Made by a program: the position numbers and the translations under genes
Shown here: in pieces, positions 396 to 37,764 of the stretch
Position numbering within the stretch: position 1 is the first letter of the stretch
How the letters are laid out: each line of letters starts with the position of its first letter
IMG/VR virus record: IMGVR_UViG_3300014202_000046
Coordinates: 1 to 37,881 of that record
Direction: 5' to 3' (one strand)
Length of the DNA stretch: 37,881 nucleotides
Origin: a virus
Taxonomy: Duplodnaviria; Caudoviricetes
The notes under the pieces: generated by a model
Database searches by the model: none
What the model saw: the letters and a program-made list of their open reading frames with translations, nothing else
Told to the model about the DNA's origin: nothing

Positions 396-975
396 CTTAG
401 ATAAGCTGTCCGAAGAGGCTGTCTCTGTATATCACGCACTCGATGCCTACAAGGTAGGCTGTGAGTTACGGGAGACTATCACCAACAAGCTCAACGGGGA
501 GTATAACAAGTTACAAGAATACATAGGACACCTCCGTCACCGGAGAATAGAGACTCGCCCCGAGATTGAAGGTGTTTTGACGGAGATCGAAACCTATTGG
601 TTAGAAGATCGATACGAAAAGGCCGAGCCTTTCGTCACCGCTGATGGTAAATGGAAGTATCGTACTCTCCTACCCAAGGGATACAGTAGTGCTAAGAGCG
701 TGCTCTTGAGTGCTGTAGAACTCAATGTGTTTGGCGTAGGAGTGGGTAAGAGCGAACTTGAAAAACGTATCCGTGAGGCTAAGCGTGCTTCGAGCACGAG
801 TGCTATCTATAGTAGTGCTGAGATAATGAACTATCTAGACGCTGTAGAACGAAGTCTTCTGATCATGTTTGGACCATCTCCTGATCCCTTTGTAGTAGGA
901 CAAGTTGTTGGGAGGCTAACTAAACTGAGGGATAATATGATGTTGTTGGTCCCCTCAACAGCGGTAAGTCCATAA
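388..975 (+). CDS. hypothetical protein (~195 aa)
   Basis: Track ORF 358..975. Start moved to ATG 388 (GAGG at 375-378). Stop overlaps the next ATG. Confidence 0.7.
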   Translation: MSNLDKLSEEAVSVYHALDAYKVGCELRETITNKLNGEYNKLQEYIGHLRHRRIETRPEIEGVLTEIETYWLEDRYEKAEPFVTADGKWKYRTLLPKGYSSAKSVLLSAVELNVFGVGVGKSELEKRIREAKRASSTSAIYSSAEIMNYLDAVERSLLIMFGPSPDPFVVGQVVGRLTKLRDNMMLLVPSTAVSP

Positions 976-2846
976 TGGGAATGGACGTATTTGTTGACGC
1001 ATATGCAGCAGTAGCTGCGGCTCGTCAATTCGCAAGTCACTATCAATTGGGTGTAACGTTCGACGTAGTACCCGGACAAGCTCCGTATGCTGATGGTAAA
1101 AACATACACCTTGAACCTCCCAAACCTAACTGGGACAAGGCCAAGCTCAATGAGTGGTGGGCCAAGTTCATTCATGAGACTAAGCATATGACCCCTCGGG
1201 GTCGTAAGGCTTTCAAGTTATCGGATGACTTGAAGCTAGATATGAATAGTCTACATGGCATGATGATTAACCTCTTTGAAGATGCTTGTATCAACAATCT
1301 TGATTCGGGTAAGTTCTTAGGGATGGATGAGACACTCAGTGGATACTTGAGTATAGCCTTTGATAGACTGTTCAACAGCCCATCGTCTAAAGTTAATATG
1401 TGGCATAAGCAGAAGCTGTCCCAAGAAGAGGAAGTCTTGGGCACCTCTATCCTACTCTCGGCTAAGGGTATGGAGAGTTATATGCCTGACATGATAGGTA
1501 AAGTGGAGCCTATCGTTGATCATCCCAAGTTTAATCCTCGATTGAAGGAGTTGTACACCAAAGCAGTTGCCAACCACCTCGATGGTCTTAAGAACGAAAT
1601 CGAGAATGTAGATGACTCCGACACCCGTAATGTATGGGATTGGATGAACAACTACATGAAAGATTTGTGGGACATTCCCCCACCTCCACCCCCTCCACCA
1701 GAGGGTGAGGGAGAGGGTAAGGGTGACAAAGGTGATGGTGAAGGTGAAGATGGAGAGGGCGAAGGTACATCCAAGGGGAGTGGGAATAAGGAAGGTGACG
1801 GAGAGATTGATGAGTCTACCGGAGAGGCTATCAAGGGGTTCCTCAAGGAATTCTTGGATGACCACCAACCTGACCTTAACAAGCGTCGAAGTCACAGGGA
1901 CATGTACTACGAGCCTATCGACCTATCCAAGGGTAGTGGTGCTTATGATCCGCCGAAGGCAGAGGACTTCATTGTAGTTGACTTCAGAGGGAAGCAATTC
2001 TGTGATGGTACGATGCTTGGATCTCGGGGTAGAGCATCTGGTTACAGTATCAATTGGAATGATTTGGAGAAAGGTACTGCCCACTTCAGGAAATACTACG
2101 ATGAAGTAGTGACTAAGGACTCCTTGAGTAAGGATATCAAACGTCACATACAGAGTGAGTCTCGTGTTAAGATCCACCGCAACATTAAGAAGGGCAAGCT
2201 TGATGCTAAGAAGTTGTTCAAGTTAGGTGTGCCCGATGCTGGCACGGACTGGCAAGAGAAAGTCTTCTGGGAGAAAGTCCAGAAGGATATGACCAAGGAT
2301 ACTGTGATCTCCGTGGGAGGAGACTTCAGTGGTAGCATGGGTAGACAGAAGATCATAGTTCAGATCAAGGCTATGGAACTTCTGGATGAAGTGCTTACCA
2401 CCCTCGGTGTTAACCATGAGTTATGGGGATTCACTTGCTGGTCTCGGTGTCCAACTCACTTCCTGTTTAAGCAGTTCGGTGAGAGGGTTCGTAGACCTGA
2501 TTTAGTGAATCGGATGATAGCTGCCGCTGGTCATATGGAGAACAATAACGACGGAGATAACGTACTGTTTGCCTACAACAGACTCTTGGCAACGAGGGCC
2601 AAGCGTCGTATAATGGTAATCATGAGTGATGGTGCTCCTTGCGGTCCCGGTGGTGATATTCGCTGGTGGACTAAGGAAGTGGCTCGAAGAATACAAGATC
2701 AGAAACTTGTAGAATTACACGCTATCGGCATCATGTCTGATGCCCCCAAGATTTTTTATGACAGTAACGAGGTGATCCATCGAGTAGATCAATTGGAACC
2801 AGCTCTCTTGAACGTTCTTAAGAACAAGCTGATACAGGTGAGGTGA
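975..2846 (+). CDS. CobT-like VWA-domain protein with N-terminal HExxH metallopeptidase-like domain
   Basis: HETKH and NLFED motifs, a poly-Pro plus G/E-rich linker, then MIDAS DFSGS and MSDGAP. Adjacent to an AAA+ ATPase. Confidence 0.85.
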   Translation: MGMDVFVDAYAAVAAARQFASHYQLGVTFDVVPGQAPYADGKNIHLEPPKPNWDKAKLNEWWAKFIHETKHMTPRGRKAFKLSDDLKLDMNSLHGMMINLFEDACINNLDSGKFLGMDETLSGYLSIAFDRLFNSPSSKVNMWHKQKLSQEEEVLGTSILLSAKGMESYMPDMIGKVEPIVDHPKFNPRLKELYTKAVANHLDGLKNEIENVDDSDTRNVWDWMNNYMKDLWDIPPPPPPPPEGEGEGKGDKGDGEGEDGEGEGTSKGSGNKEGDGEIDESTGEAIKGFLKEFLDDHQPDLNKRRSHRDMYYEPIDLSKGSGAYDPPKAEDFIVVDFRGKQFCDGTMLGSRGRASGYSINWNDLEKGTAHFRKYYDEVVTKDSLSKDIKRHIQSESRVKIHRNIKKGKLDAKKLFKLGVPDAGTDWQEKVFWEKVQKDMTKDTVISVGGDFSGSMGRQKIIVQIKAMELLDEVLTTLGVNHELWGFTCWSRCPTHFLFKQFGERVRRPDLVNRMIAAAGHMENNNDGDNVLFAYNRLLATRAKRRIMVIMSDGAPCGPGGDIRWWTKEVARRIQDQKLVELHAIGIMSDAPKIFYDSNEVIHRVDQLEPALLNVLKNKLIQVR

Positions 2847-4273
2847 TGATTGGTTACTCAAAAGCAGCAGAGCTAACAGCTAAGAATCCCAAACGATGGG
2901 TGAAGCCGGGTGGTTCCGCAGGCGGGAACCAATTCGTATCATGGTGGTACGAGGACATAGAGAATTATCAAGTTACTCTGTGCGACATGTATAGATTTAT
3001 GTCAATTGAAGTGTTGGCTCTTAAAGAGGCGGACACTATAGCTCTCATTTCACCGTACAGTTTCTACCGTTTATACACTGTCCTTCAAGAGAATAATCTC
3101 TGGGACGAACTCAAAGATAAATATTTGGAGTTTTTACAAATGACCATATCTAAAGCAACCCCAGCCGCCGCCGAAGAATTGATGGCGATTTACAATGATT
3201 ACACTGGTAAAGTTGGAACGCCTGTTACGGGTGTCAAGGCTGCGCCTTCTCTGTGGGATGACAGTATGGCTGTAACGTTCCCCGCTCACCCGAGCAACTC
3301 TACTGGTGAGATCCATGTATCGAAGTTGTTGAAGGTAAAAGCTAGTAAGCTTCCTGGCCCTGACTTCACCATGCCCATCTTCGAGGCCAGCTCGTGGCCG
3401 GTGGAGGTTCTCCAACACATCCCCCGTTTGGATGAATCAGACATCGAGCACTACGTGTACCCGGTAGATGCCGCTTACTGGTTCTGCTACGGTATCCGTA
3501 TGAACAAACCGGTGTTCCTGTCTGGTGTTAAGGGTTGTGGTAAGTCCACTCTTCCCAAGAAGGTGGCCGCTGATTTGAACTGGCCCTTCCTGCGTAAGCA
3601 GATGGCGAAGGACATGGACTCTTCGGAGTTCTTCGGTTCTTGGACTTCCAAGGATGGTTCCACTCACTTTATTCCGGGTGACTTGCCTCAAGCTGCGGCG
3701 GCTGGTATGATGTTCCTCATCGATGAGATCTCTAATGCACCTAACGAATTGCACCCGGCCCTTCACCAGTGTCTGGAAAAGAATGGTAAGATTTACCTTA
3801 ATAGTAAAGCTGGTGATATCCATGAGAAGATCGTTATCCCTCACGAGTGTTTCCGAGCGATTGCGTCTGACAATACTCGCGGTCAGGGCGATACTCGTGG
3901 TGCGTATGCGGGTACCGATGTCATGAACTCTGCCACGATGGATCGCTTCCGCGTCATGATCGTGATGGATTACATGGAGCGTAAGCAGGAGCTTATGGTT
4001 CTTAAGAACACGGTTCCCGGTGCTACGGACCTCTTGTGTGAGAAGGTATTGGACGTTGCTGCTAAGGTACGTGCATCCTATCAGGCAGGTGATCTGTCCG
4101 AGACTCTCTCGATGCGCCCTCTCATTGAGTGGATTGAGAAGTGTGTCTTCACCCGTGATGTAATGAAGTCCCTCGAAGTTACTATGCTCAACAAGATTGA
4201 TTCTGACTCCGAACGTAGTCAGGTAATCAGCTTTGTTCAGGCTGTCTTTGGCTCTCTCTTGAAGGCGAAGTAA
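2843..4273 (+). CDS. CobS-like MoxR-family AAA+ ATPase
   Basis: Walker A GVKGCGKST, Walker B FLIDEI, DNTRGQGD...MNSATMDRF, SMRPL sensor 2. Confidence 0.88.
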   Translation: MMIGYSKAAELTAKNPKRWVKPGGSAGGNQFVSWWYEDIENYQVTLCDMYRFMSIEVLALKEADTIALISPYSFYRLYTVLQENNLWDELKDKYLEFLQMTISKATPAAAEELMAIYNDYTGKVGTPVTGVKAAPSLWDDSMAVTFPAHPSNSTGEIHVSKLLKVKASKLPGPDFTMPIFEASSWPVEVLQHIPRLDESDIEHYVYPVDAAYWFCYGIRMNKPVFLSGVKGCGKSTLPKKVAADLNWPFLRKQMAKDMDSSEFFGSWTSKDGSTHFIPGDLPQAAAAGMMFLIDEISNAPNELHPALHQCLEKNGKIYLNSKAGDIHEKIVIPHECFRAIASDNTRGQGDTRGAYAGTDVMNSATMDRFRVMIVMDYMERKQELMVLKNTVPGATDLLCEKVLDVAAKVRASYQAGDLSETLSMRPLIEWIEKCVFTRDVMKSLEVTMLNKIDSDSERSQVISFVQAVFGSLLKAK

Positions 4274-6845: not shown

Positions 6846-8098
6846 TGGAGTTAGACATTCTAAGACTCCTAGCTACTAGAGCATCTTGGAATTCTTACCA
6901 CAAGTTCATTACGTCTGATCGCCTGTCCCCTGAGATACGAGATGTGTTCAAGGGGATGGGCCAGTACTATACTGAGACTGGTAAGGATGAGATTCTGTGG
7001 CCGGAGTTCCTAACGTGGTATACGGTAGTAGCCCACCCCTCATTGCCAAGTGATAAGTTTACTTTGGTTGAATTCATTTGTAACAAGTTAGCATCCACTA
7101 CGGATCCTATTAACCTGTCTGTTCTTAAGAACTTTCTCATCCGTGACTACGCTGCCAAGATAGCGGACACTGCTACCAGCGTGGCTATTGATGGTAAGTT
7201 AGATCTGATGAAGGAGGTGTTGAAGCAGGTCAGTGAGTTCACTAACTCCGTCAACGCTATCAGTGGTAGTAAGTACTACATATCCCGAGATGATTGGGAT
7301 GAACAACTTGCAACCCTAAGTGTTGGTGAGAAGTATGACTGGGCTCTCAATGAACTTCAAGTATCTATTGGCCCCATACGTAAGGGTGATTTCATCATAG
7401 TAGGTGCTAGACCCGATGGTGGTAAGACTACGTTCCTTGCGTATAACGCAGCATATTTTGCCAAGCAACTCAAGGAAGGTGAATGTCTCCTATGGTTGAA
7501 TAACGAAGAAGCCTTGCCCAAAGTTAAGTCTCGCCAAGCCCAAGCTGCTCTCAAGTGGACAGTGGGTGAGGTGATGAAGGATGGCACCGTCACAAAGGCT
7601 GCTATGGTCAAGGCCCTCGGAGGTGAGAGTAAGATCGTCACAGTAGATAAGACTGATATGTCTATCCAAGACATCGATGAGATCGTGGCGATGACTAATC
7701 CCAAGATCATCATCATCGATCAGATCTGGAAGGTGTCGGGCTTTGAGGATTCCAAGGGTACCGAGATCATGAGGTATGGACAGTTAGCCAAGTACATTCG
7801 TGGTATGGCTAAGGACATTGGCCCCATCATCGGGACGTCTCAGCTAGACGGTTCTGCTGAGGGTATGAAGTATCCTGATATGGGAACTCTATATGGTTCC
7901 AAGACTGCTGTGCAAGGTGAGGCTGATTGTATCATCATCATTGGTAGAGATCCTTCCGAACCACCAGATACTCGGTTCATCCATACACCTAAGAACAAGA
8001 TGGTGTTCGGTGATCCAACTAAACGTAACCAGACGTGGGCAGTAGGAATTGATCCTACCTATGCTCAGTTCGTGAGTAAAATACCGAGGCCAAAATGA
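6845..8098 (+). CDS. DnaB-like SF4 replicative helicase
   Basis: Walker A GARPDGGKTT, NNEE, IIIDQ, SQL, GSKTAVQGEAD, PKNK. Confidence 0.9.
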   Translation: MELDILRLLATRASWNSYHKFITSDRLSPEIRDVFKGMGQYYTETGKDEILWPEFLTWYTVVAHPSLPSDKFTLVEFICNKLASTTDPINLSVLKNFLIRDYAAKIADTATSVAIDGKLDLMKEVLKQVSEFTNSVNAISGSKYYISRDDWDEQLATLSVGEKYDWALNELQVSIGPIRKGDFIIVGARPDGGKTTFLAYNAAYFAKQLKEGECLLWLNNEEALPKVKSRQAQAALKWTVGEVMKDGTVTKAAMVKALGGESKIVTVDKTDMSIQDIDEIVAMTNPKIIIIDQIWKVSGFEDSKGTEIMRYGQLAKYIRGMAKDIGPIIGTSQLDGSAEGMKYPDMGTLYGSKTAVQGEADCIIIIGRDPSEPPDTRFIHTPKNKMVFGDPTKRNQTWAVGIDPTYAQFVSKIPRPK

Positions 8099-9360
8099 CC
8101 CTTTCACTTAAAGAGATTCTTAGTCAAGCGGCCGCCATCGACATTGAGACTACCATCAATGCTACTAATCCAAACCACTTTGGAGCGACTCCATTTGATC
8201 CCGCTAATTCAATCGTGATGGTGGGATGGAATTACTTAGACAACTTAAAATCAACGAACGTTCAGATTATCAATGGTGGGTCTGGGCGATTTGTAGCAAG
8301 TAGATTGAGTGCAATAAGAACTAACTTTGAAAGTCACGCTAGATTATTAGTTGGTCATAATATTCCATTTGATCTACATCATCTATTAGCATCTGCTACT
8401 AGTGAGGAATTCCATGAGATCATAGCTGATATGTACATATGGGATACAATGATAGCAGAATATTATCTAACTAGACAGGAGTGTAAATCCATTTCACTAG
8501 AAGATCTGGCAGCTAGGTATAGCATCCCATTCACCAAAGATGTGACGGTATCAGAGTCCTTCAAGCTTGGTATTGGTGCCGACAAGATAGATCCAAAAGT
8601 TCTTGAGACTTATCTAAAAGGAGATGTACAGACCACCACTAAAGTATTCTTAGCTCAACAGCAACGGGCACTAGAGATCGGTGGTCCCGAATACGTAGAG
8701 TATCTCATTGCTCTCATGGGAGCTAGGCTTACTACGATGTTGATGGAACGTAATGGGTGTCATATTAATGATGTGACTTTCACTATTGATAAAACTAATA
8801 TTGAACACCAAGTCAAGGCTGCTGGATTGGCATTAGAATCCATCTTGGAGGATGAGTTTGGACCACACTTTGATGGAGTGATTGCAATCAATTCTCCTAA
8901 GCAAGTTCACACATACTTGTTCGGCGGAGACATAAAACTTGTAGAACAGGTGGATGTAGGGGAAGTATATAAAGGAGGGGCTAAGAAAGGTCAGCCTAAA
9001 CTTAAGACAGTGCGTACCACAAGAACTTTAACATCGTTAATCTCACCTAACTTTGAGGGCAAGAAATTTGCAGCTATGAACTCTGTGGATAGTAAGGTAT
9101 TAAATGACATACTACTCCAATGTAAGATGGCTAGTCATACTAAGGCGTTCATAGAACGGTTGTTGCTCTTAAGAACACTGACCAAGGATCTCAGTACTTA
9201 TGAGACCTACGGTAAGCAGTTTTACCCATCTCCTTTGCCCCATTTAGTGATGCTACATCCCAACTTCAATCATGCGCTGACTAACACTAAGAGACCTTCG
9301 TGTAGTCAACCCAACTTACAAAACGTATCCAACAAAGACATGGACATTGATGTGTCATGA
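8095..9360 (+). CDS. family A DNA polymerase, N-terminal part (3'-5' exonuclease + thumb/palm start)
   Basis: Exo I DIETT, Exo II HNIPFD, Exo III YLKGD, INSPKQV; ends just after TNTKRPSCSQPNLQN. Confidence 0.88.
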   Translation: MTLSLKEILSQAAAIDIETTINATNPNHFGATPFDPANSIVMVGWNYLDNLKSTNVQIINGGSGRFVASRLSAIRTNFESHARLLVGHNIPFDLHHLLASATSEEFHEIIADMYIWDTMIAEYYLTRQECKSISLEDLAARYSIPFTKDVTVSESFKLGIGADKIDPKVLETYLKGDVQTTTKVFLAQQQRALEIGGPEYVEYLIALMGARLTTMLMERNGCHINDVTFTIDKTNIEHQVKAAGLALESILEDEFGPHFDGVIAINSPKQVHTYLFGGDIKLVEQVDVGEVYKGGAKKGQPKLKTVRTTRTLTSLISPNFEGKKFAAMNSVDSKVLNDILLQCKMASHTKAFIERLLLLRTLTKDLSTYETYGKQFYPSPLPHLVMLHPNFNHALTNTKRPSCSQPNLQNVSNKDMDIDVS

Positions 9361-10253
9361 GTATCAAGAGACATTTCATCTCACAGCACCATGATGGAGT
9401 GCTTATCGAGTTCGACTATAAACAACTTGAGATTCGGGTACTAGCTCTAGCTACTGGCTGTAAAAATCTCATAGAGGATTTGAACAATGATGTGGACATG
9501 CACCGCGCCAGAGCTGCGGAGATGTACCATATCCCAGAGGATGATGTCACCAAACCACAACGTAGGAAGGCTAAGGAGTTCTCGTTCCAGTTACAATATG
9601 GTGCGTCCTGCGAGTCTATTGCCAAGTATTGGAATGAACCTGTACCTTTAGTGAAGAGATTCTTCGAGGCGTACTTCGAGAGATATCCAGAGATAAGTGA
9701 GTATCATGAGCAACTCATGATCTTCGTGAAAGATAATGCAGTCCATGATGGGGATTATGAAGCTCTCGATGGAAGCACGCTCCCAGTTAAGCGTAGTATC
9801 ATCCCATCTATTTGGGACCATACTGGTGCCACTAGCGGATTCTTCCTAAAGGAACGTGTGAGTGAAGGGTGGCACAGTGGTGGCGGAGGGGTGCCCAAGA
9901 GAAGTACTAGAACGTACTTCCCCCCAACTAAGATCAAGAACTATCCAATACAAGGAGGTGCTGCTGATATTCTATTGTTAGTCCTGAGTAGGATGCGCAG
10001 GATCCTAGCTAAATGGGAGGACAGTGTTCACATACTTCTCCAAGTACATGACTCTATATTGTTCGATTGGTACAATCCTGACAAATCCAGATTGGGAGAA
10101 TTCGTTAGAGAAATCAAGGAGTTAATGGAATCTGTCCCAGAGATACTTGCTAAAGTCCACTGCATCAACTCACCCATAGAATTCCCCGTGGATGTGACGA
10201 TTGGTAAGACTTGGCAAGACCGTAAAGAGCTAGACACATCTAGCTTAATTTGA
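9357..10253 (+). CDS. family A DNA polymerase, C-terminal catalytic part
   Basis: Motif A DYKQLEIRVLA, motif B RRKAKEFSFQLQYG, NYPIQGGAAD, motif C QVHDS. Confidence 0.9.
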   Translation: MSIKRHFISQHHDGVLIEFDYKQLEIRVLALATGCKNLIEDLNNDVDMHRARAAEMYHIPEDDVTKPQRRKAKEFSFQLQYGASCESIAKYWNEPVPLVKRFFEAYFERYPEISEYHEQLMIFVKDNAVHDGDYEALDGSTLPVKRSIIPSIWDHTGATSGFFLKERVSEGWHSGGGGVPKRSTRTYFPPTKIKNYPIQGGAADILLLVLSRMRRILAKWEDSVHILLQVHDSILFDWYNPDKSRLGEFVREIKELMESVPEILAKVHCINSPIEFPVDVTIGKTWQDRKELDTSSLI

Positions 10254-13288: not shown

Positions 13289-13889
13289 TGATAAGTATGA
13301 TTCTATAATGCCTCCCGGAGGGCCTGTGGTAGACCCTCATATGTGGGGGAAGGAGCTCGTAAAAAGCGTACAAGAAAATCACAGTCTCCTAGATAGTTTG
13401 AAGTATGGTCCCGGTATCATTACAGGCGGTGTTGCACCGCGGCGACGAGTGGGTAAATCAACGGGACCGTTTCCCTCGTCTGGCGTGTCGGGCATGTTTG
13501 TATCAAAGGACCCATTAGCTGAAATAGATGGGCTCGCTAGCCTAGAATATCAACCGTATCAGGACAAACTCAGAGAGTTATGTTTTAGATCTCTGTTAAT
13601 ATGTTTACCTCATGGGTATGGATTCTTTCCGGTATTGCCATCCAATAGGACAAGCAATTGCAATCTTGCATTTGGTAGATTGGGGTATGATAAGTATGTA
13701 GAAGTCATGGTGGAACCAACAGATGATCGCATTTCCCATGAATTCAAACTTCTGTATCACATTAAGAATGGGAAGACCTACAGTCATCACGAGATACGAT
13801 TGTTTGCATTGGATATAGTGAATACGATTAACGACTTGAATGGAATAGATGACAGTGAGCAAGACGATAAAGGATCGGATAAAATATGA
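13281..13889 (+). CDS. hypothetical protein (~202 aa)
   Basis: Track ORF 13266..13889; ATG 13281 with GAGGG SD. Confidence 0.6.
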   Translation: MNDDKYDSIMPPGGPVVDPHMWGKELVKSVQENHSLLDSLKYGPGIITGGVAPRRRVGKSTGPFPSSGVSGMFVSKDPLAEIDGLASLEYQPYQDKLRELCFRSLLICLPHGYGFFPVLPSNRTSNCNLAFGRLGYDKYVEVMVEPTDDRISHEFKLLYHIKNGKTYSHHEIRLFALDIVNTINDLNGIDDSEQDDKGSDKI

Positions 13890-15856
13890 GTCCGTGGCTC
13901 CTAGAAACAAACCCTACGAACGAAGCAAGATTAAAAGAGAATACACGTATGAACGAGGAGATCTTGAAGAGGATGGAGACACCGAACAATATGAACCTGT
14001 ACCAGACCTATATCCATACGAGTAGATATGCGCGGTACCGAGATGACTTGGGTAGACGAGAGACTTGGGACGAGACTGTTAATAGACTCCACAAGTTCTG
14101 GTTCGATAAGATCCCCGAGTCCTTGAGAGGGGAACACGCCATTGCTATGCGTGAGGTGGAAAGTTTGAGTGTCATGCCCAGTATGAGAGTTCTCATGACT
14201 GCTGGCAAAGCTCTTGACGATCACCACGTAGCGGCGTATAATTGTGCGTATACTCCCATTGATAGTATGAAGAAGTTCTCTGAGATCCTGTACATCCTAA
14301 TGTGTGGAACAGGTGTAGGGTTCTCAGTAGAACGCGAGTATGTAAATAGACTACCAACCCTCCCGGAGGAATTTCATGAATCGGATTCACTCATTGTTGT
14401 TAAGGATAGTAAGCTTGGATGGGCAGTCGCCTACAAAGAACTTATACAGTTGCTTTGTGGAGGTCGAGTACCCCGATGGGACGTCTCAAACATTCGACCT
14501 GCCGGCAGCCGCCTTAAAACCTTTGGTGGCAGAGCTAGCGGACCCGCGCCACTTGAAGCTCTCTTTCGATATACGTGCGAAGTCTTTAAAGCCGCAGCCG
14601 GAAGACAGCTAACCACACTGGAGTGTCATGACATCGTATGCAAGATTGCGGCGATTGTTGTTGTGGGCGGGGTGCGCAGGAGCGCCCTTATTAGTCTTAG
14701 CAACCTTACTGATGAACGGTTACGGAATGCTAAGTCTAGTGCCAACATGCCTGATCATCGCTACCTTAGTAATAATAGCGTTGCTTACACATGTCAGCCT
14801 GATATGGACAGCTTCCTAAAGGAGATGGTAAACCTCTATCAAAGTAGGAGTGGTGAACGTGGAATATTCAGTCGATATGCTGCACGAGAAAAGTACAGCG
14901 CTCATAGACGCGATGAGGCTCACGATTTTGGATGTAATCCCTGTTCAGAGATCCTTCTCAGACCGGACCAATTCTGTAACCTTACTGAAGTTATTGTACG
15001 ATCTGGAGATGACATTGATCGACTTAAGGAGAAGGTCCGAAGTGCCGTGTTCTTAGGAACACTTCAATCTACCCTTACGAGTTTCAAGTTTCTAAGTAAA
15101 TCGTGGAGAACTAATTGTGAAGAAGAACGACTCTTGGGCGTATCGCTCACTGGTATCTGTGATCACCCATTGCTCTCTGATCCTCATGGACTTAGCGTTG
15201 TCTTGGAACAGTTACGAGACTACGCTGTGGAGTGCAACCGAGAATTCGCTGGAGTTCTTGGGGTGGAACCTAGCGCGGCTATTACTTGTGTCAAACCTAG
15301 TGGCACTGTATCTCAGCTTTGTGATACTGCCAGTGGTATCCACTCTAGGTATAGCGAGTATTATATCCGTCGTGTACGACAAGATGACAAAGACCCCCTC
15401 TCCAAGTTCCTAATCGAGCAAGGAGTTCCGTGGGAACAGGATGTCCATAACCCACACGCTATCGTGTTTAGTTTCCCTATCAAGGCACCAGAGGGATCGG
15501 TGACACGTAATGACCGTACTGCACTAGAGCAGTTAAAGCTGTGGGAAGTTTACAATGATAGTTGGTGTGAGCATAAGCCTAGCATCACAGTGTTCTATGA
15601 AGATGAAGAGTTCCTCGAACTGATCAGCTATGTGTACTCTAACTTCGATAAGATGAGTGGCATCTCTTTCCTTCCCAAGGATAACCATGTGTATGCCCAA
15701 GCACCTTACGAAGAGATCACTAAGGAACAGTACGAAGAGTCGCTAGCTAAGATGCCCAAGGAAATTGATTGGCTTAAGCTCAAGGACTATGAGACTGGGG
15801 ATAATACTAGTGTCCAACCTGAGCTGGCTTGTACAGCAGGGGCTTGTGAACTATGA
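13886..15856 (+). CDS. nrdJ: class II adenosylcobalamin-dependent ribonucleotide reductase
   Basis: YNC, GTGVGFSV, GGRASGP, GGVRRSALI, NPCSEI, FCNLTE, TCVKPSGTVSQL and C-terminal CTAGAC; no beta-subunit gene nearby. The true start may be later (MNLYQ). Confidence 0.9.
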   Translation: MSPWLLETNPTNEARLKENTRMNEEILKRMETPNNMNLYQTYIHTSRYARYRDDLGRRETWDETVNRLHKFWFDKIPESLRGEHAIAMREVESLSVMPSMRVLMTAGKALDDHHVAAYNCAYTPIDSMKKFSEILYILMCGTGVGFSVEREYVNRLPTLPEEFHESDSLIVVKDSKLGWAVAYKELIQLLCGGRVPRWDVSNIRPAGSRLKTFGGRASGPAPLEALFRYTCEVFKAAAGRQLTTLECHDIVCKIAAIVVVGGVRRSALISLSNLTDERLRNAKSSANMPDHRYLSNNSVAYTCQPDMDSFLKEMVNLYQSRSGERGIFSRYAAREKYSAHRRDEAHDFGCNPCSEILLRPDQFCNLTEVIVRSGDDIDRLKEKVRSAVFLGTLQSTLTSFKFLSKSWRTNCEEERLLGVSLTGICDHPLLSDPHGLSVVLEQLRDYAVECNREFAGVLGVEPSAAITCVKPSGTVSQLCDTASGIHSRYSEYYIRRVRQDDKDPLSKFLIEQGVPWEQDVHNPHAIVFSFPIKAPEGSVTRNDRTALEQLKLWEVYNDSWCEHKPSITVFYEDEEFLELISYVYSNFDKMSGISFLPKDNHVYAQAPYEEITKEQYEESLAKMPKEIDWLKLKDYETGDNTSVQPELACTAGACEL

Positions 15857-32903: not shown

Positions 32904-33080
32904 TTAGTTAACCTTTGTTAAGTCTTTCAATTGGATCCACATAGTAGTTTCCTTGTTTGATTGGTCAGGCAAGTACCGAACAAATGCCCATGAGTCCGCG
33001 TGTTGTTTCTCTATTGGATCTATGTCTTCAATCTTAGCTTTATACGCATCTACGTATACAGTGTCATTAATATTGTACAT
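32904..33080 (-). CDS. hypothetical protein (58 aa, SH3/Tudor-like beta pattern)
   Basis: ATG overlaps the terL stop; YNINDTVYV...AKIEDI...FVRY...WI. Confidence 0.55.
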   Translation of the reverse strand: MYNINDTVYVDAYKAKIEDIDPIEKQHADSWAFVRYLPDQSNKETTMWIQLKDLTKVN

Positions 33081-34354
33081 TAGAATCCACTTGTCAGATC
33101 GTGGGGTATCCACGTATCATTCATGATTGCGTCGTTATAGAAAGGCTTAGCAACCTGATCTATGTACGCTAGAGAGTCCAACATGTCATCGTGAGCCATC
33201 GGGTTAGGGAAGTCCATCAATTGTCCGTGTAGTTTGTTAGTGTAAGGACCGGGCCTAAACGTTAACCTACCCTGTTGCATACGTCCTTGTAGTGCCCACA
33301 CGATTCTATCAGTCTTCTTCTTGTTCCCATGCGTCACTTCGGTAATTGGGGGGAACGTATTCAACCTCTTCATGTTGTCCATGAGGTACGGCATGAGAGC
33401 GTTTTTGAGAGCTCCTTTCTCGATACCGATCAATTGAGGTTTGTATTTCTGTGCTGTTCTTAAGACCGTAATAGCGGTCTCTCTTACGCCCCACCTTCCC
33501 GTGAGTATGTCCCATACGTGCCACCCTTCTGTATTTACCTTGACGATAGAGATAGCAGTCTCGTCAAGTCTCTTAAGATGTCCTTTGGCGATGCCTTGTA
33601 CATCTTCGTATCCAGCGGGATCCACAGTCATGTAGAACTCGCCGGGGGCATTGTCTTCCTTAACTACAAACAGATCGTTACTAAAGATTGTACCACCGAA
33701 AGAACTGAATGAAGCTTCAAACTCTTGGCGGACATATTCCATCGGCATGTCTTTAGTAGCTTGGAAGATCTCCTTCGGATCAATGAAGGGGTTGTCCAAG
33801 CTTGGGAATGTCCATGCTCCCCACTCATCATTGTCAACAGCTTGAGCAGCTACGAAGAGATCGTAGAAGTGGTTCTTACCATTGGGCGTACCAATGAATA
33901 AAGCCTCTCCCTTGACGTCTGCCAAAACAGGACGGACAATAGCGGACCACACTTCTTCCTTCATAAAAGCGTATTCGTCCATCACCACGTATGAAAGTCC
34001 TACACCTCGTAAGGTATCGGGTCTGTCGGATCCTTTTAGGTGGATTTGTCTTCCATTGATCAGGGTGATGATACACTCGTTCTCTCGTATACCCTTAGTG
34101 ACTGGCTGGGCCATCATCTTCAGGGATTGCCACATGATGTCCTTGGCTTGCTGGAATGTAGGGGCTATGTAGTACACCGCCTTATCAGACAAGTCATAAC
34201 CATGTTTATTAGTCATTTGTAGAGCGTGAACGATCAGCTCCACTCTCGCAAGATAGGATTTTCCAAACCGTCTTCCAGCACCAACTACTTTGAATCGATG
34301 AGGGTCAGCGAATATACGCTGTTGGGCTGGGTGTAAAGAAAATTCTAGATCCAT
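33080..34354 (-). CDS. terL: terminase large subunit
   Basis: HPAQ Q-motif, Walker A AGRRFGKS, YIAPT, LRG, Walker B VVMDE, IGTPNGKN, nuclease TVDPAG and HDDMLDSLAY. Confidence 0.95.
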   Translation of the reverse strand: MDLEFSLHPAQQRIFADPHRFKVVGAGRRFGKSYLARVELIVHALQMTNKHGYDLSDKAVYYIAPTFQQAKDIMWQSLKMMAQPVTKGIRENECIITLINGRQIHLKGSDRPDTLRGVGLSYVVMDEYAFMKEEVWSAIVRPVLADVKGEALFIGTPNGKNHFYDLFVAAQAVDNDEWGAWTFPSLDNPFIDPKEIFQATKDMPMEYVRQEFEASFSSFGGTIFSNDLFVVKEDNAPGEFYMTVDPAGYEDVQGIAKGHLKRLDETAISIVKVNTEGWHVWDILTGRWGVRETAITVLRTAQKYKPQLIGIEKGALKNALMPYLMDNMKRLNTFPPITEVTHGNKKKTDRIVWALQGRMQQGRLTFRPGPYTNKLHGQLMDFPNPMAHDDMLDSLAYIDQVAKPFYNDAIMNDTWIPHDLTSGF

Positions 34355-34357
34355 ATA

Positions 34358-34570
34358 TTACGACATATCTTCGTGCCCACAATAAGTGATCCCGTAGTTA
34401 CCCCATTCACCGGCCACACCGGGATTTAGTGGGGTATTGGTACCCATTGCAGTTTCGTTGTAGGTTTTACTGAAGGTTCCAGTGATATTACCTCCACCAG
34501 ACCCTTCTGATGGAGTTTGTGCGTCTTGTTTACTTGCCACCGTTGGAAACACCCACTCGACGATAGTCAT
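34358..34570 (-). CDS. G/T/N-rich hypothetical protein (70 aa), possibly the 3' half of a frameshifted gene
   Basis: ORF track; no SD before its ATG. Confidence 0.5.
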   Translation of the reverse strand: MTIVEWVFPTVASKQDAQTPSEGSGGGNITGTFSKTYNETAMGTNTPLNPGVAGEWGNYGITYCGHEDMS

Positions 34571-34682
34571 CCGGGGGACTAATGCCTGTTACAGTAGCGG
34601 CTTCACAGCCGAAGTCCTGTCCTTGGAGGTTGTGACCACCGGACTTACCGGCATTAGTTGCATCTGCGTTCTGATTACTCAT
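34530..34682 (-). CDS. 50-aa hypothetical protein, possibly the 5' half of a frameshifted gene
   Basis: Read by eye: MSNQNADATNAGKSGGHNLQGQDFGCEAATVTGISPPDDYRRVGVSNGGK; AGGAG SD. Confidence 0.55.
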   Translation of the reverse strand: MSNQNADATNAGKSGGHNLQGQDFGCEAATVTGISPPDDYRRVGVSNGGK

Positions 34683-35049
34683 CTTCATCTCCTATTTCTT
34701 CAAATTCCCCTTCAATATGGGGAAGTTTGGGAACATCGTCATTCAAACCCTTGATAATGATGTTGATTCCACCGAATCCTTCGTGACCACCGTAGTGTTC
34801 AACCGCTTTTCGTTGAGGAATCGCCCTATCAAGGAGCATTTTAGCTGCAACCAAGTCCCCTTCGAGAGCTTTCTTGACCACAACCTTGATTATCTTCTCA
34901 AAATCCTTGTTGATTGCCCCTGCGAACTGCTCAATAAGAGCGTTTTGCATCTGTGTAAGGGCGTTCTTTGATCCTACAGGTCTACCTGCGGGATTTCCAG
35001 ACTTGCCTTTGACTAGATTTGGGTTGCCCCTCCGTTTAACATCACTCAT
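34675..35049 (-). CDS. putative terminase small subunit (DUF5681-like)
   Basis: KGKSGNPAGRPVGSKN...KALEGDLVAAKMLLDR; upstream of terL. Confidence 0.75.
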   Translation of the reverse strand: MSDVKRRGNPNLVKGKSGNPAGRPVGSKNALTQMQNALIEQFAGAINKDFEKIIKVVVKKALEGDLVAAKMLLDRAIPQRKAVEHYGGHEGFGGINIIIKGLNDDVPKLPHIEGEFEEIGDEDE

Positions 35050-35050
35050 T

Positions 35051-36529
35051 TTATCTCAAACTAGTTAATTTGTTATAGAATTCTGTGCAAGTCACTACAT
35101 CAATTAGCCCTTGAGACTCCACAAGCCTCACATAAGCCACAATTTCATTCCACACGGACTCAGTAATAGTGAGCACAGCGGGAGTTGGGTCAATATCGTG
35201 ACCATAAAGCATCAGAGATCGGCCATATTTGATACATGTATTGATGTATCCTATGATCGTAGCCGCTGAAGCTTGGTCCATCGAGGCTCCAGACATCTTC
35301 ATCAATGCTTGAGGAGGGGAACATCTTGGATCCATACCAGCTTGTGTGTTGATTCGGGTGGATCTACCCATCTTATAACCTGCGTCAATCAATAGATTCT
35401 CTACATATGCGTTAGAGATTCCGTTAGAGTAGGCTATGAAGTCATTACCACGAGAGTATCCACGAGCTTGAAGCCAAGCTTTCGTCTGGGCAAACGATGT
35501 GAGGATCTGAGCATCAGTGAGTTTGGATGCTGTCGGACGTCCCGGATCGGGGGTTGTTGGAGTTCCGGTAATTGGAAAGGTGAATGTAGAGGCTCCGGTA
35601 ACTGTGACAGTGAATGTCCCATTGAACGATGGGCTCATGGCCCCACTAATCGTCACACTGTCTCCAGTAGTTAGTCCGTGAGCGAGACCTGAAACATTTG
35701 TCCATGTGGCTAAACCCGCCCCATTACTCACCAGTCCAGTTGTGCCCGCAAAAAGTAGCGGAACATCGGCGGAATCATTATATTGTTGTAGGCCAAAGTC
35801 CCATCCAGCGTTATACAACGTGGTATAGTTAGCCTCAGTTAGTCTCCCCACTCCACCTACTTGATAGGGAGATGAGAAGATTGTAGCTTTGAATCCTGCG
35901 GCTGCTAAAGAGGGGTATGCGTAGTTGATTTGTCCATCCATCGAATCATCAAAGGTGAACATCAATTGAGGCTTGTTTTTACCAATCCAAATCTTTCGGA
36001 TAAATACGTTAGCGGGAATGCCCTGTGCGGAGGCGTGCACGCCCAATCTAAAGTCTATTTTACCAATGGTGGCAAAGTTAGCAGGTCCCCCATTATTTCG
36101 TGTCCACGTATCTGTGAACATGGCTTGAGAAATAATCTGGCGTTTAGGCGTCTTATCGGCTCCGGATATTGGAGTTCTATTGATGTAGTTGAAGTAATCA
36201 GTCCCGGTCTGTTCTGTGATGAACACGACGATGGTGTCAACCACCGCCCCCGTACCTTCAGGCCATTCTGCCTCGAAGCAGAATATCTCTCCACCAGAGA
36301 GATCAATAGTGGCTCCCGGAGTAGTTTGATTGGGTTCGTATTTAAACGAAGCATACTGCGAGAGAGTCCCACCAGTGATATTAATACCTACCCCGCGTTC
36401 GTCATAAGTGTATGTACGCCCAGAAGCAGCGGGAGAGCCTGAGTTGAATACAATCGAAGAAGAAGGAATAGAACCGTCTGTGAAGTCGGCAATTAATCTC
36501 ATGCCTTGGGGGGATCTAAGAGAACTCAT
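35051..36529 (-). CDS. NodB/CE4 polysaccharide-deacetylase-like protein with N-terminal beta domain and an inserted Thr-rich domain
   Basis: FTFDDS, GFKATIF, LYNAGWDFG, IAYSNG, LYGHDI; insert HGLTTGDSVTISGA...FNGTFTVT...TFTF. Confidence 0.7.
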   Translation of the reverse strand: MSSLRSPQGMRLIADFTDGSIPSSSIVFNSGSPAASGRTYTYDERGVGINITGGTLSQYASFKYEPNQTTPGATIDLSGGEIFCFEAEWPEGTGAVVDTIVVFITEQTGTDYFNYINRTPISGADKTPKRQIISQAMFTDTWTRNNGGPANFATIGKIDFRLGVHASAQGIPANVFIRKIWIGKNKPQLMFTFDDSMDGQINYAYPSLAAAGFKATIFSSPYQVGGVGRLTEANYTTLYNAGWDFGLQQYNDSADVPLLFAGTTGLVSNGAGLATWTNVSGLAHGLTTGDSVTISGAMSPSFNGTFTVTVTGASTFTFPITGTPTTPDPGRPTASKLTDAQILTSFAQTKAWLQARGYSRGNDFIAYSNGISNAYVENLLIDAGYKMGRSTRINTQAGMDPRCSPPQALMKMSGASMDQASAATIIGYINTCIKYGRSLMLYGHDIDPTPAVLTITESVWNEIVAYVRLVESQGLIDVVTCTEFYNKLTSLR

Positions 36530-36954
36530 TATACGGGACGCCAGAAAACCAGAACTGTTTCGTCAACGGAGCCTGTGACTGTTAGAGCAGCAGCCGAATT
36601 AATGGCTCCATAGAACGGGAAGTGTAAATCTACAGTAGTAGAACCAGTTAAAACAATTGAACCAGACGCTATGACAGATCCTGTGTCTTTGGTGAATCCC
36701 GCTATAGTAGCAGTAGCTGGTCCAGCGTTCTTAAGAATTGTGATACCAATAAGGTGAGTATCATTCTGGACTCCACCTCCAATATCCACTGCTCCTGTGC
36801 CGTCACAAATAGTCAGATTAGATTCATTACGTGTTACGACGTAGCTAGCATCAGAGCCTCCAGTTCCCCCACCTTCTCGTACGCCCGGAATTAACGTCTT
36901 AAGGCCCACGGCCCAATAGGTATCCCCACCACTTGGATTAACTTCTGTTGCCAT
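36529..36954 (-). CDS. small beta-rich putative virion protein (141 aa)
   Basis: G/T/V-rich; first CDS of the late arm; TAATG-coupled to the next gene. Confidence 0.6.
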   Translation of the reverse strand: MATEVNPSGGDTYWAVGLKTLIPGVREGGGTGGSDASYVVTRNESNLTICDGTGAVDIGGGVQNDTHLIGITILKNAGPATATIAGFTKDTGSVIASGSIVLTGSTTVDLHFPFYGAINSAAALTVTGSVDETVLVFWRPV

Positions 36955-36986: not shown

Positions 36987-37062
36987 TGGAGCTGGATGCA
37001 GGAATCGAACCCGCTGCCTCGGCCTTACAAAGGGCGCGCTCTACCAGTTGAGCTAATCCAGC
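36987..37062 (-). tRNA. tRNA-Thr(UGU)
   Basis: GCTGGAT/ATCCAGC acceptor, GCTC/GAGC D-stem, loop TTTGTAA, GGTTCGATTCC, encoded CCA. One C:C mismatch in the anticodon stem. Confidence 0.9.
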
Positions 37063-37069
37063 GAATTGT

Positions 37070-37144
37070 TGGAGCGGGTTGAGAGAATTGAACTCTCGAC
37101 GTACAGTTTGGAAAACTGCCTCTCTGCCACTGAGTTAAACCCGC
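37070..37144 (-). tRNA. tRNA-Gly(UCC)
   Basis: GCGGGTT/AACCCGC acceptor, U73 + CCA, loop TTTCCAA, T-arm GAGAG-TTCAATT-CTCTC. Confidence 0.92.
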
Positions 37145-37148
37145 GAAG

Positions 37149-37222
37149 TGGCGGCTCCACTAGGTACTGCCCCCAGTTACGTAGGGTCAAAGCCTACTGC
37201 CTTACTTTTAGGCTATGGAGCG
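37149..37222 (-). tRNA. atypical tRNA-Gln(UUG)
   Basis: GTAGG-CTTTGAC-CCTAC anticodon arm, GCCT/AGGC D-stem, G73 + CCA. T-loop GGCAGTA, D-loop without GG, C1:C72 mismatch. Confidence 0.78.
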
Positions 37223-37227
37223 ATAAT

Positions 37228-37447
37228 TGGTGACGGGGGTTTAAAGTCTCCCGTCCGACATATATTAACGTAAGGTGCATGTATCTAAGGGGAGTGTGGA
37301 AGCAGGATCGACCTGCTCACGAAATGACAAGACTCGAACTTGTGACTTGGGCGTTCAAGGCCCATGTTCTACCAACTGAACTACATCTCTACCACAAAGG
37401 TTGCTTAGATCTCTTGACCTAGTATGACGACCTTAATCACCCGTCAT
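37228..37447 (-). ncRNA. candidate ~220-nt structured RNA with paired ends, 3' CCA and an embedded tRNA-like domain
   Basis: 5' TGACGGGTGATTAAGGTC pairs with 3' GACTTTAAACCCCCGTCA (16 of 18 positions by eye, including one G-U), followed by CCA. Inner stems ATCTAAG/CTTAGAT and TGTGG/CCACA. Begins at the predicted TSS. Confidence 0.6.
37320..37390 (-). tRNA. tRNA-like cloverleaf with UGA anticodon (Ser-type anticodon, no long variable arm, no CCA), nested in the ncRNA candidate
   Basis: GAGATG-TA-GTTC-AGTTGGTA-GAAC-A-TGGGC-CTTGAAC-GCCCA-AGTC-ACAAG-TTCGAGT-CTTGT-CATTTC. Confidence 0.65.
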
Positions 37448-37454
37448 GCTAGTT

Positions 37455-37483
37455 ATTATACACCATCTGCCACAGGTTGTCAA
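37455..37483 (-). promoter_or_regulatory. consensus sigma70 promoter driving the RNA cassette and structural arm
   Basis: Exact TTGACA-17 nt-TATAAT. Confidence 0.88.
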
Positions 37484-37518
37484 GCACTATCGTATTTTCT
37501 TAGGTTGGAAGGTGTAGT

Positions 37519-37610
37519 ACTTAATTAATTAATATATGTATTATCTATTATAGATAATTAATGTATTAAGTATAGTAGTATATATTATATAAGTACTCTT
37601 TAATGTAATG
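37519..37610. other. very AT-rich, palindrome-rich non-coding tract
   Basis: TTAATTAATTAA, ATTATCTA-TTA-TAGATAAT inverted repeat, TATATATTATATA. Confidence 0.6.
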
Positions 37611-37764
37611 TGAGGTCCGGTACGGACGGTTCCATTAAAACGGGGTTACAACCCCTGTCCGGAGTCCCTAGACTCCTATCCAGAGTCCCGTTCTTAAGAA
37701 CAAGAAGCCATGAGAATTATACCCAAAAAGAGTATTATCTAATTCATACCCAATTCCTTTTATA

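Follow-up and report, generated by a model that had tools for sequence, protein, structure and literature searches.

A candidate non-coding RNA at the head of a phage tRNA operon places a tRNA-like cloverleaf inside a CCA-ended helix

The stretch of DNA analysed here (the window) is a virus record of 37,881 bases, estimated to be 100% complete, from a podovirus-like phage, with replication genes on the plus strand and those for packaging and structure on the minus strand. No close cultured relative was found, the best large-terminase matches falling below 46% identity. On the minus strand a consensus promoter is followed by a 220-nt stretch, by tRNA-Gln, tRNA-Gly and tRNA-Thr, by two ORFs, and then by the terminase genes. 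The first-pass annotation had placed the 220-nt element upstream of the small terminase gene; the minus-strand order is as described, but the two do not adjoin, since the two ORFs (141 and 492 aa) intervene. These ORFs (35051-36954, minus strand, between the tRNAs and the small terminase), the longer of which has a weak polysaccharide deacetylase match, had no match in any related locus fetched, and other large genes occupy their slot in related phages. The features of the locus, read in the direction of transcription, are as follows.

37478..37483, minus strand: -35 hexamer TTGACA of a promoter scoring 12/12; kept in the relative from run X1 though the spacer differs
37455..37460, minus strand: -10 hexamer TATAAT of the same 12/12 promoter; kept in the X1 relative
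37228..37447, minus strand: predicted 220-nt non-coding RNA, from motifs and folding
37429..37446, minus strand: closing helix, 5′ strand; pair probability 0.75-1.0
37392..37420, minus strand: 5′ strands of the three inner rod stems; minority fold (6-10%), with an alternative local hairpin
37319..37390, minus strand: embedded cloverleaf; Rfam RF00005 at 64.2 bits; called tRNA-Ser by ARAGORN
37355..37357, minus strand: anticodon position, UGA; UGG in the X1 relative
37300..37318, minus strand: extra T-arm-like hairpin directly after the cloverleaf; core pairs at 1.0; one C-G is U.G in X1
37273..37299, minus strand: 3′ strands of the three inner rod stems; minority fold, with an alternative local hairpin domain
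37231..37248, minus strand: closing helix, 3′ strand; pair probability 0.75-1.0; -21.7 kcal/mol
37228..37230, minus strand: unpaired 3′ CCA, in the slot of a canonical tRNA 3′ end in another genome (run X2)
37223..37227, minus strand: AU-rich 5-nt spacer, the same in run X2
37149..37222, minus strand: tRNA-Gln(UUG); Rfam 36.7 bits; atypical GGCAGUA T loop; missed by ARAGORN
37070..37144, minus strand: tRNA-Gly(UCC), by ARAGORN and Rfam
36987..37062, minus strand: tRNA-Thr(UGU), by ARAGORN and Rfam
33080..36954, minus strand: start of the packaging and structural operon, on the same strand as the element, with the 141-aa and 492-aa ORFs and the terminases
35049-34675, minus strand: likely small terminase, from its position and a DUF5681 match
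34354-33080, minus strand: large terminase

Much of what the first-pass annotation had reported about the span itself is borne out. The sigma70 promoter that it called perfect (TTGACA-17-TATAAT, 37483-37455, minus strand) agrees with the consensus at 12 of 12 positions, and standard spacing puts the predicted transcription start near A37447. The span had been described as free of ORFs; indeed, no ORF of at least 60 aa overlaps 37228..37447, and all three frames are interrupted by stops. Each of the motifs named was located on the minus strand, from 37447 to 37228. The distance from the element to tRNA-Gln, which had been likened to that between the true tRNAs, is 5 nt, and the gaps among those tRNAs (all of which carry U34 and read A-ending codons) are 4 and 7 nt. 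Finally, the ends of the span, described as complementary with a CCA overhang, pair in a 16-bp helix (37446-37429 with 37248-37231), and CCA follows directly.

An equally strong closing duplex was reached by 4 of 5000 shuffles of the 3′ strand, by 15 of 25,240 genome 23-mers, and by four of the 300 other CCA ends in the window genome. It persists when the RNA is folded through the end of tRNA-Gln, and falls to a probability of about 0.24 once the entire four-tRNA precursor is folded together. As for the CCA, the second genome (run X2) has the same tRNA-Gln, the same spacer and the same ACCA, and what lies upstream there is an ordinary tRNA T arm and acceptor; the outer CCA of the element therefore sits in a normal tRNA-type slot. 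When positions are left free, an enclosing duplex of at least -21 kcal/mol strength is found around 8 of 97 other phage tRNAs, and the existence of these similar duplexes lends something to a plainer account of the locus. Under this account the element is a structured leader whose closing helix and CCA do no more than stabilise the polycistronic tRNA transcript or mark a boundary in it, with a decaying tRNA carried along as a passenger. We consider this unlikely, and the comparisons among relatives given below bear on it from both sides.

Inside the closing helix, the picture of a rod built from nested stems stands only in part. The motifs are present, but the three inner stems have an ensemble probability of 6-10%, and the best rod (-64.3 kcal/mol) lies 1.2 kcal/mol above the minimum free energy fold (-65.5 kcal/mol), which puts local hairpins in their place. 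Taken whole, the 220-nt fold has a z-score of -2.04, with 6 of 200 shuffles doing as well; keeping the cloverleaf constant and shuffling only the flanks gave a fold as good as the real one in 2 of 200 cases. Whole-element z-scores in the three phages discussed below are modest (-2.0, -1.3 and -2.0). The rod fold matters for the suggestion, also made at first pass, that the RNA is 6S-like and binds sigma70 RNA polymerase through an open-promoter-like bubble. In its favour stand the length of the closing helix and, within the rod fold, an asymmetric loop rich in A/U; however, the bubble is lopsided (about 5-8 by 20-24 nt) and belongs to the minority fold, the phage itself uses a sigma70 promoter here, and the 6S model (RF00013) has no match at E up to 10. 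This suggestion is thus unsupported, and we regard a 6S-like role as extremely unlikely.

The first-pass annotation had recognised a complete cloverleaf and a GAGCAGG-TCGAT-CCTGCTT hairpin, and both are confirmed: the former gives the Rfam tRNA match listed above, and the latter is close to 100% formed in the ensemble, with a loop that contains the self-complementary UCGA. The cloverleaf (37390-37319) is 72 nt long, with canonical D and T loops and a 4-nt variable loop, and it has the bases of the tRNA elbow (U8, A14, G15-C48, G18, G19, G53-C61 and a UUCGA T loop). Its acceptor end departs from the norm, with an A1.G72 mismatch and no CCA, GAG following instead. The automatic label tRNA-Ser(UGA) was considered and rejected: the long variable arm is missing, A1.G72 is unpaired, no CCA comes after base 73, and in the X1 relative the anticodon is UGG with C33. 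Base pairing between the anticodon loop and the D stem was also considered and dropped, being short and not kept in relatives.

These features also bear on whether the unit could be a storage precursor. The canonical elbow is consistent with this, as is the perfect 7-bp acceptor with A73 in one of the related phages (L041, below), and there are partial parallels in the YrlA RNA of M. smegmatis, which RNase P cleaves and which acquires a CCA (PMC4201824), and in the tRNA-Phe embedded in GOLLD (PMC12990946). On the other hand, the window cloverleaf has the A1.G72 mismatch, and its UGA anticodon is set on a short-arm body, whereas eight of nine other phage tRNAs with a Ser anticodon are 86-90 nt long; moreover, neither the anticodon nor U33 is kept in X1. 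In light of this, we judge a storage precursor to be quite unlikely.

It is informative to examine the X1 relative closely. In this public run, a 198-nt contig extends across 37463-37271 with 15 differences from the window, and the account of individual changes that follows is drawn from the 10 differences listed among those 15. The D stem carries a double change from U-A to C-G that keeps the pairing; G.U becomes G-C in the acceptor stem, C-G becomes U.G twice, once in the anticodon stem and once in the extra hairpin, and G.U becomes A-U in the closing helix, where the partner base lies outside the contig. One pair (27-43) is broken, and a further change falls at position 26. Altogether, six of the seven stem pairs touched by the listed changes are still paired (four of five in the cloverleaf alone), and the D and T loops are unchanged among these changes. 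The anticodon goes from UGA to UGG and U33 becomes C. Because the pairings are kept and the anticodon and U33 are not, the shape appears to have been retained and decoding lost, which points to recognition by proteins rather than by the ribosome. In this respect X1 is in company: U33 is found in 99 of 102 ordinary phage tRNAs and is lost in four of five cloverleaves of the present type, with C33 in X1, L041, L025 and L086.

A second X1 contig keeps both promoter hexamers, with 11 of 12 spacer positions differing and three differences between the -10 hexamer and the predicted start; we infer that the two contigs come from one phage. Both are single and of low depth (2.6 and 4.1), so sequence errors are possible. 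For the structured leader with its decaying tRNA, X1 has evidence of both kinds. The cloverleaf drifts faster than its surroundings, with eight of the listed changes in 72 nt compared with two in the approximately 104 nt of flank covered (and at most two further, unlisted differences in the flanks if both contigs are one phage), as a passenger tRNA in decay might; yet these changes keep four of the five affected pairs and leave the D and T loops untouched.

More distant kin were sought among 44 loci with at least 67% large-terminase identity, of which 23 reach a sigma70-type promoter. A paired T arm lies behind the promoter in 2 of these 23, L025 and L041, which belong to a five-member clade (support 88) that is sister to the window phage by large terminase in a quick tree; the position of the window beside this clade is poorly settled, and the clade's other three members stop short of the promoter. 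The element is absent from the remaining 21, all of which have the same packaging genes, so it is dispensable in most kin. The cloverleaves of L025 and L041 both have C33 and no CCA, with anticodon GAU in L025 and UGA in L041. Folded from the predicted start, L025 has an outermost helix (717-879) of 6 bp with CCA directly after it (probability 0.96-0.99 for ends at 880-920), and L041 has one (40-397) of 13 bp with CCA two bases later (probability about 0.85 for ends at 402-460). The minimum free energy fold of L041 lacks the full cloverleaf. A rod fold drawn by eye at 55-228 in L041 was superseded, as the fold from the predicted start gives a longer unit. Flank shuffles produced an enclosing helix with CCA within 0-2 nt in 9 of 300 cases for the window, 7 of 300 for L025 and 0 of 120 for L041, the CCA criterion having been defined after the data were seen.

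The elements of the three phages differ in length (220 nt in the window, about 166 nt at 717-882 in L025 and about 363 nt in L041) and their flanks do not align; hence no covariation of the kind that the first-pass annotation had looked to supports the outer helix, and homology of the flanks is unproven. What is predicted to recur across the three phages is the plan and not the sequence. The RNA is likely real; it belongs to no catalogued family, divides the parts of a tRNA in an unusual way, and is predicted in three phages. For the structured leader, the absence of the element from most kin is in keeping with a dispensable passenger, but L025 and L041 have no true tRNA downstream and nonetheless possess cloverleaf, helix and CCA, with nothing there for a leader to protect. 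The same comparison weighs on the idea that the RNA serves the late operon as a scaffold or in assembly, by oligomerising, for example, or by partnering a phage protein, with the tRNA domain only as a folding module. Its place at the head of the packaging operon, the two near-equal folds 1.2 kcal/mol apart and the self-complementary UCGA of the extra hairpin would suit such a role. However, 21 of 23 kin loci with the same packaging genes do without the element, and the flanks are unconserved across the three phages; we see only a slim chance for a scaffold.

Wider searches left the carriers at three phages and one partial contig. BLAST of the region, of the 3′ flank and of the L041 unit against 50,697 phage records gave tRNA-body matches or nothing. 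An exact scan of viral contigs for the extra hairpin returned an identical copy of the window phage (L001) and one match within an unrelated gene, and the 22-nt leader motif was found in none of the metagenome contigs. The promoter together with the 9-mer GTGATTAAG occurs at 51 loci, but the element is present only in the window's own copy and in L025, and this 9-mer is therefore weak evidence. A pattern for the anticodon and T arms gave 10 loci, three of them real (the own copy, L041 and L086). L086 was rejected as a homologue of the whole RNA, being from an unrelated virus with a gene following the cloverleaf at once; at the same place in L174 (about 1465-1575), this intergenic cloverleaf has arms resembling those of L041, a UGA anticodon, C33, a 10-bp acceptor, no CCA and a D-loop insert of about 35 nt. 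Searches with the capsid, small terminase and second terminase yielded no new carriers. In L041 the non-coding unit behind the promoter (40-402, about 360 nt) is structured and contains a second anticodon-like hairpin; a strong G+C hairpin lies just short of its 3′ end, and a further hairpin follows at 418-448.

The expectation that no Rfam family would cover the whole span was upheld: whether searched at the gathering threshold or with E up to 10, it is matched by the tRNA model alone, and the corresponding searches matched only the tRNA domain of L041 and gave nothing significant for L025. A literature search that covered mostly open-access main texts found no description of this layout; related phage RNAs could be among those in the YrlA tables of PMC4201824. 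Several known RNAs nonetheless share parts of it. In the YrlA RNAs (RF02553; PMC4201824) the two ends likewise pair in a helix, on which sits a tRNA-like domain with D and T arms; the same paper reports the RNase P cleavage and CCA gain of the M. smegmatis member. The window RNA differs in having the normal D-anticodon-T order, a free anticodon arm, a buried acceptor and a CCA on the closing helix, and in lacking both the Ro60-binding motif GNCGAAN0-1G, a mark of YrlA RNAs near their 5′ end, and a Ro60 gene, which for those RNAs lies within about 4 kb. Membership in YrlA was rejected on these grounds: the Rfam tRNA alignment is full (1-71) and not permuted (T, acceptor-like stem, D), and there is no exact GNCGAAN0-1G in the element, one-mismatch matches falling only in the cloverleaf and near the 3′ end. 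The motif is absent from L025 and occurs in L041 only inside the cloverleaf. A Ro60 (TROVE) gene was found neither in the window genome, estimated complete (0 of 1), nor in related fragments (0 of 5), so that the first-pass statement of no permuted order and no Ro60 gene is sustained. The only YrlA match lies across the Gly-Thr junction, outside the span, at 19.4 bits against 69. Much the same evidence speaks to a Y-RNA-like tether, in which the closing helix would bind a host Ro60 (Rsr) and the tRNA domain would recruit a nuclease or another tRNA-binding protein. The overall plan resembles that of Y RNAs (PMC4201824), but with the motif missing or confined to the cloverleaf, no TROVE gene in the genome or in any of the five fragments, and no YrlA match on the span, we consider this tether very unlikely.

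tmRNA also has a CCA-ended closing helix around an internal domain. The window RNA, by comparison, has no T arm beside the CCA helix, no G3.U70 and, as had been remarked at first pass, no tag frame; neither ARAGORN nor Rfam calls a tmRNA, three-frame translation gives no tag-like peptide ending inside the RNA, and tmRNA was thus rejected. The scar of a split tRNA was rejected as well, since no T arm precedes the outer CCA helix and ARAGORN, set to allow introns of as much as 300 nt, reports no split gene in the plus sense. A leader CAA could pair with the tRNA-Gln anticodon in a T-box-like manner, but this pairing was dropped, being short and not kept in relatives. T4 RNAC and RNAD have tRNA-like ends. 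They are likewise non-coding RNAs of unknown function beside a phage tRNA cluster (described in part in PMC3014915 and PMC9697503). The window RNA, too, is a non-coding unit inside a tRNA operon, but its flanks match none of the 50,697 phage records, and it has a whole internal cloverleaf, of which the RNAC and RNAD descriptions used for the comparison make no mention. The non-tRNA transcripts phi80 M3, P1/P7 C4 and pre-4.5S RNA are likewise handled by tRNA-processing enzymes, RNase P among them (PMC11143913, in part); the window RNA differs from these in a 5′ end that is the predicted transcription start, a full cloverleaf and no other Rfam match. GOLLD (RF02032; PMC12990946) embeds a whole tRNA in a larger phage-associated RNA near tRNA arrays. 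It was rejected as an identity for the window RNA, which has no match to the conserved 3′ domain RF02032 at E up to 10, is 220 nt long compared with 375-833 nt, and embeds a unit that is not a normal tRNA. Because GOLLD already places tRNAs within larger phage RNAs, the design is less unprecedented than it was first taken to be. The window RNA is a new architectural variant among the unexplained stable RNAs of phage tRNA clusters.

What such an RNA might do is best considered from its anatomy. The earlier description of a discrete RNA processed like a tRNA is supported by the promoter, the CCA slot, the conservation in X1 and the same predicted layout in two kin, but its rod shape is not. Host sigma70 polymerase would start near A37447, immediately ahead of the closing helix, and excision of tRNA-Gln from the polycistron would free the 3′ end, which exonucleases would then trim to the helix and CCA; the 5-nt spacer and standard tRNA processing suggest these steps. 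The cloverleaf would fold into an L shape, because the elbow bases U8, A14, G15-C48, G18, G19, G53-C61 and the UUCGA T loop are in place. Its acceptor end is buried and lacks CCA, and the CCA lies on a separate helix without a T arm; for this reason neither half should be a substrate for a synthetase or the ribosome. Driven by the strongest promoter, which stands first in the tRNA operon, the RNA could soak up enzymes directed at anticodons, elbows or CCA tails and so spare the three true U34 tRNAs. We accordingly favour, with somewhat less than even confidence, a stable, tRNA-processed 220-nt RNA that presents the elbow and anticodon arm of a tRNA, can neither be charged nor decode, and acts as a decoy for tRNA-cutting or tRNA-sensing proteins of the host.

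A decoy is favoured because anticodons are reported targets of defence nucleases (PMC11555353), as are the CCA tails of acceptor-like helices (PMC12851939). There are counterpoints: phage escape as published (PMC11555353) proceeds by supplying functional tRNAs and not decoys, and the faster drift of the X1 cloverleaf also fits a decaying tRNA. More doubtful than the decoy in general is the proposal that these elements constitute a new class of anti-defence RNA, with a CCA helix outside and an unchargeable elbow and freely drifting anticodon arm inside, baiting anticodon, elbow and CCA-tail nucleases and never entering the ribosome. The known phage answers to tRNA-cutting defences are working tRNAs, and an unchargeable look-alike, if true, would be a different strategy; it would also give the stable RNAs found in phage tRNA clusters, which have long lacked an explanation, a role that can be tested. 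Given that the unit is small and has a consensus sigma70 promoter, its processing, charging and decoy activity are directly testable in E. coli. It is also worth considering that automatic 'tRNA-Ser' calls in phages can mask larger RNAs.

Several other features of this genome can be recorded. Just upstream of the promoter, 37505-37600 is very A+T-rich and contains palindromes; in related phages, too, the same promoter has such a stretch in front of it. Beyond it, 37600-37700 (minus strand) holds a cluster of short hairpins, one scored as terminator-like; the cluster is kept in run X1 with a 13-nt insertion and possibly represents origin or packaging signals. On the plus strand, a family A DNA polymerase is split over two adjacent ORFs of 421 and 298 aa (8095-10253), and 975-4273 and 13886-15856 hold a CobT-like VWA and AAA ATPase gene pair and a B12-dependent ribonucleotide reductase.

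The tRNA-Gln(UUG) that follows the element is itself unusual. Its D loop lacks the usual GG, and its T loop is the same as that of alphaproteobacterial tmRNA. A literature search found no description of a phage tRNA-Gln(UUG) with an altered T loop. A pattern search for tRNAs of this kind returned 44 viral loci (L301-L344), and the anticodon and T stems are intact and freely covarying in 34 of 36 distinct sequences. Related stretches occur in cultured Streptomyces and Xanthomonas phages, where they are mostly unannotated or labelled tRNA-His. This widespread phage tRNA with its altered elbow may merit separate study.
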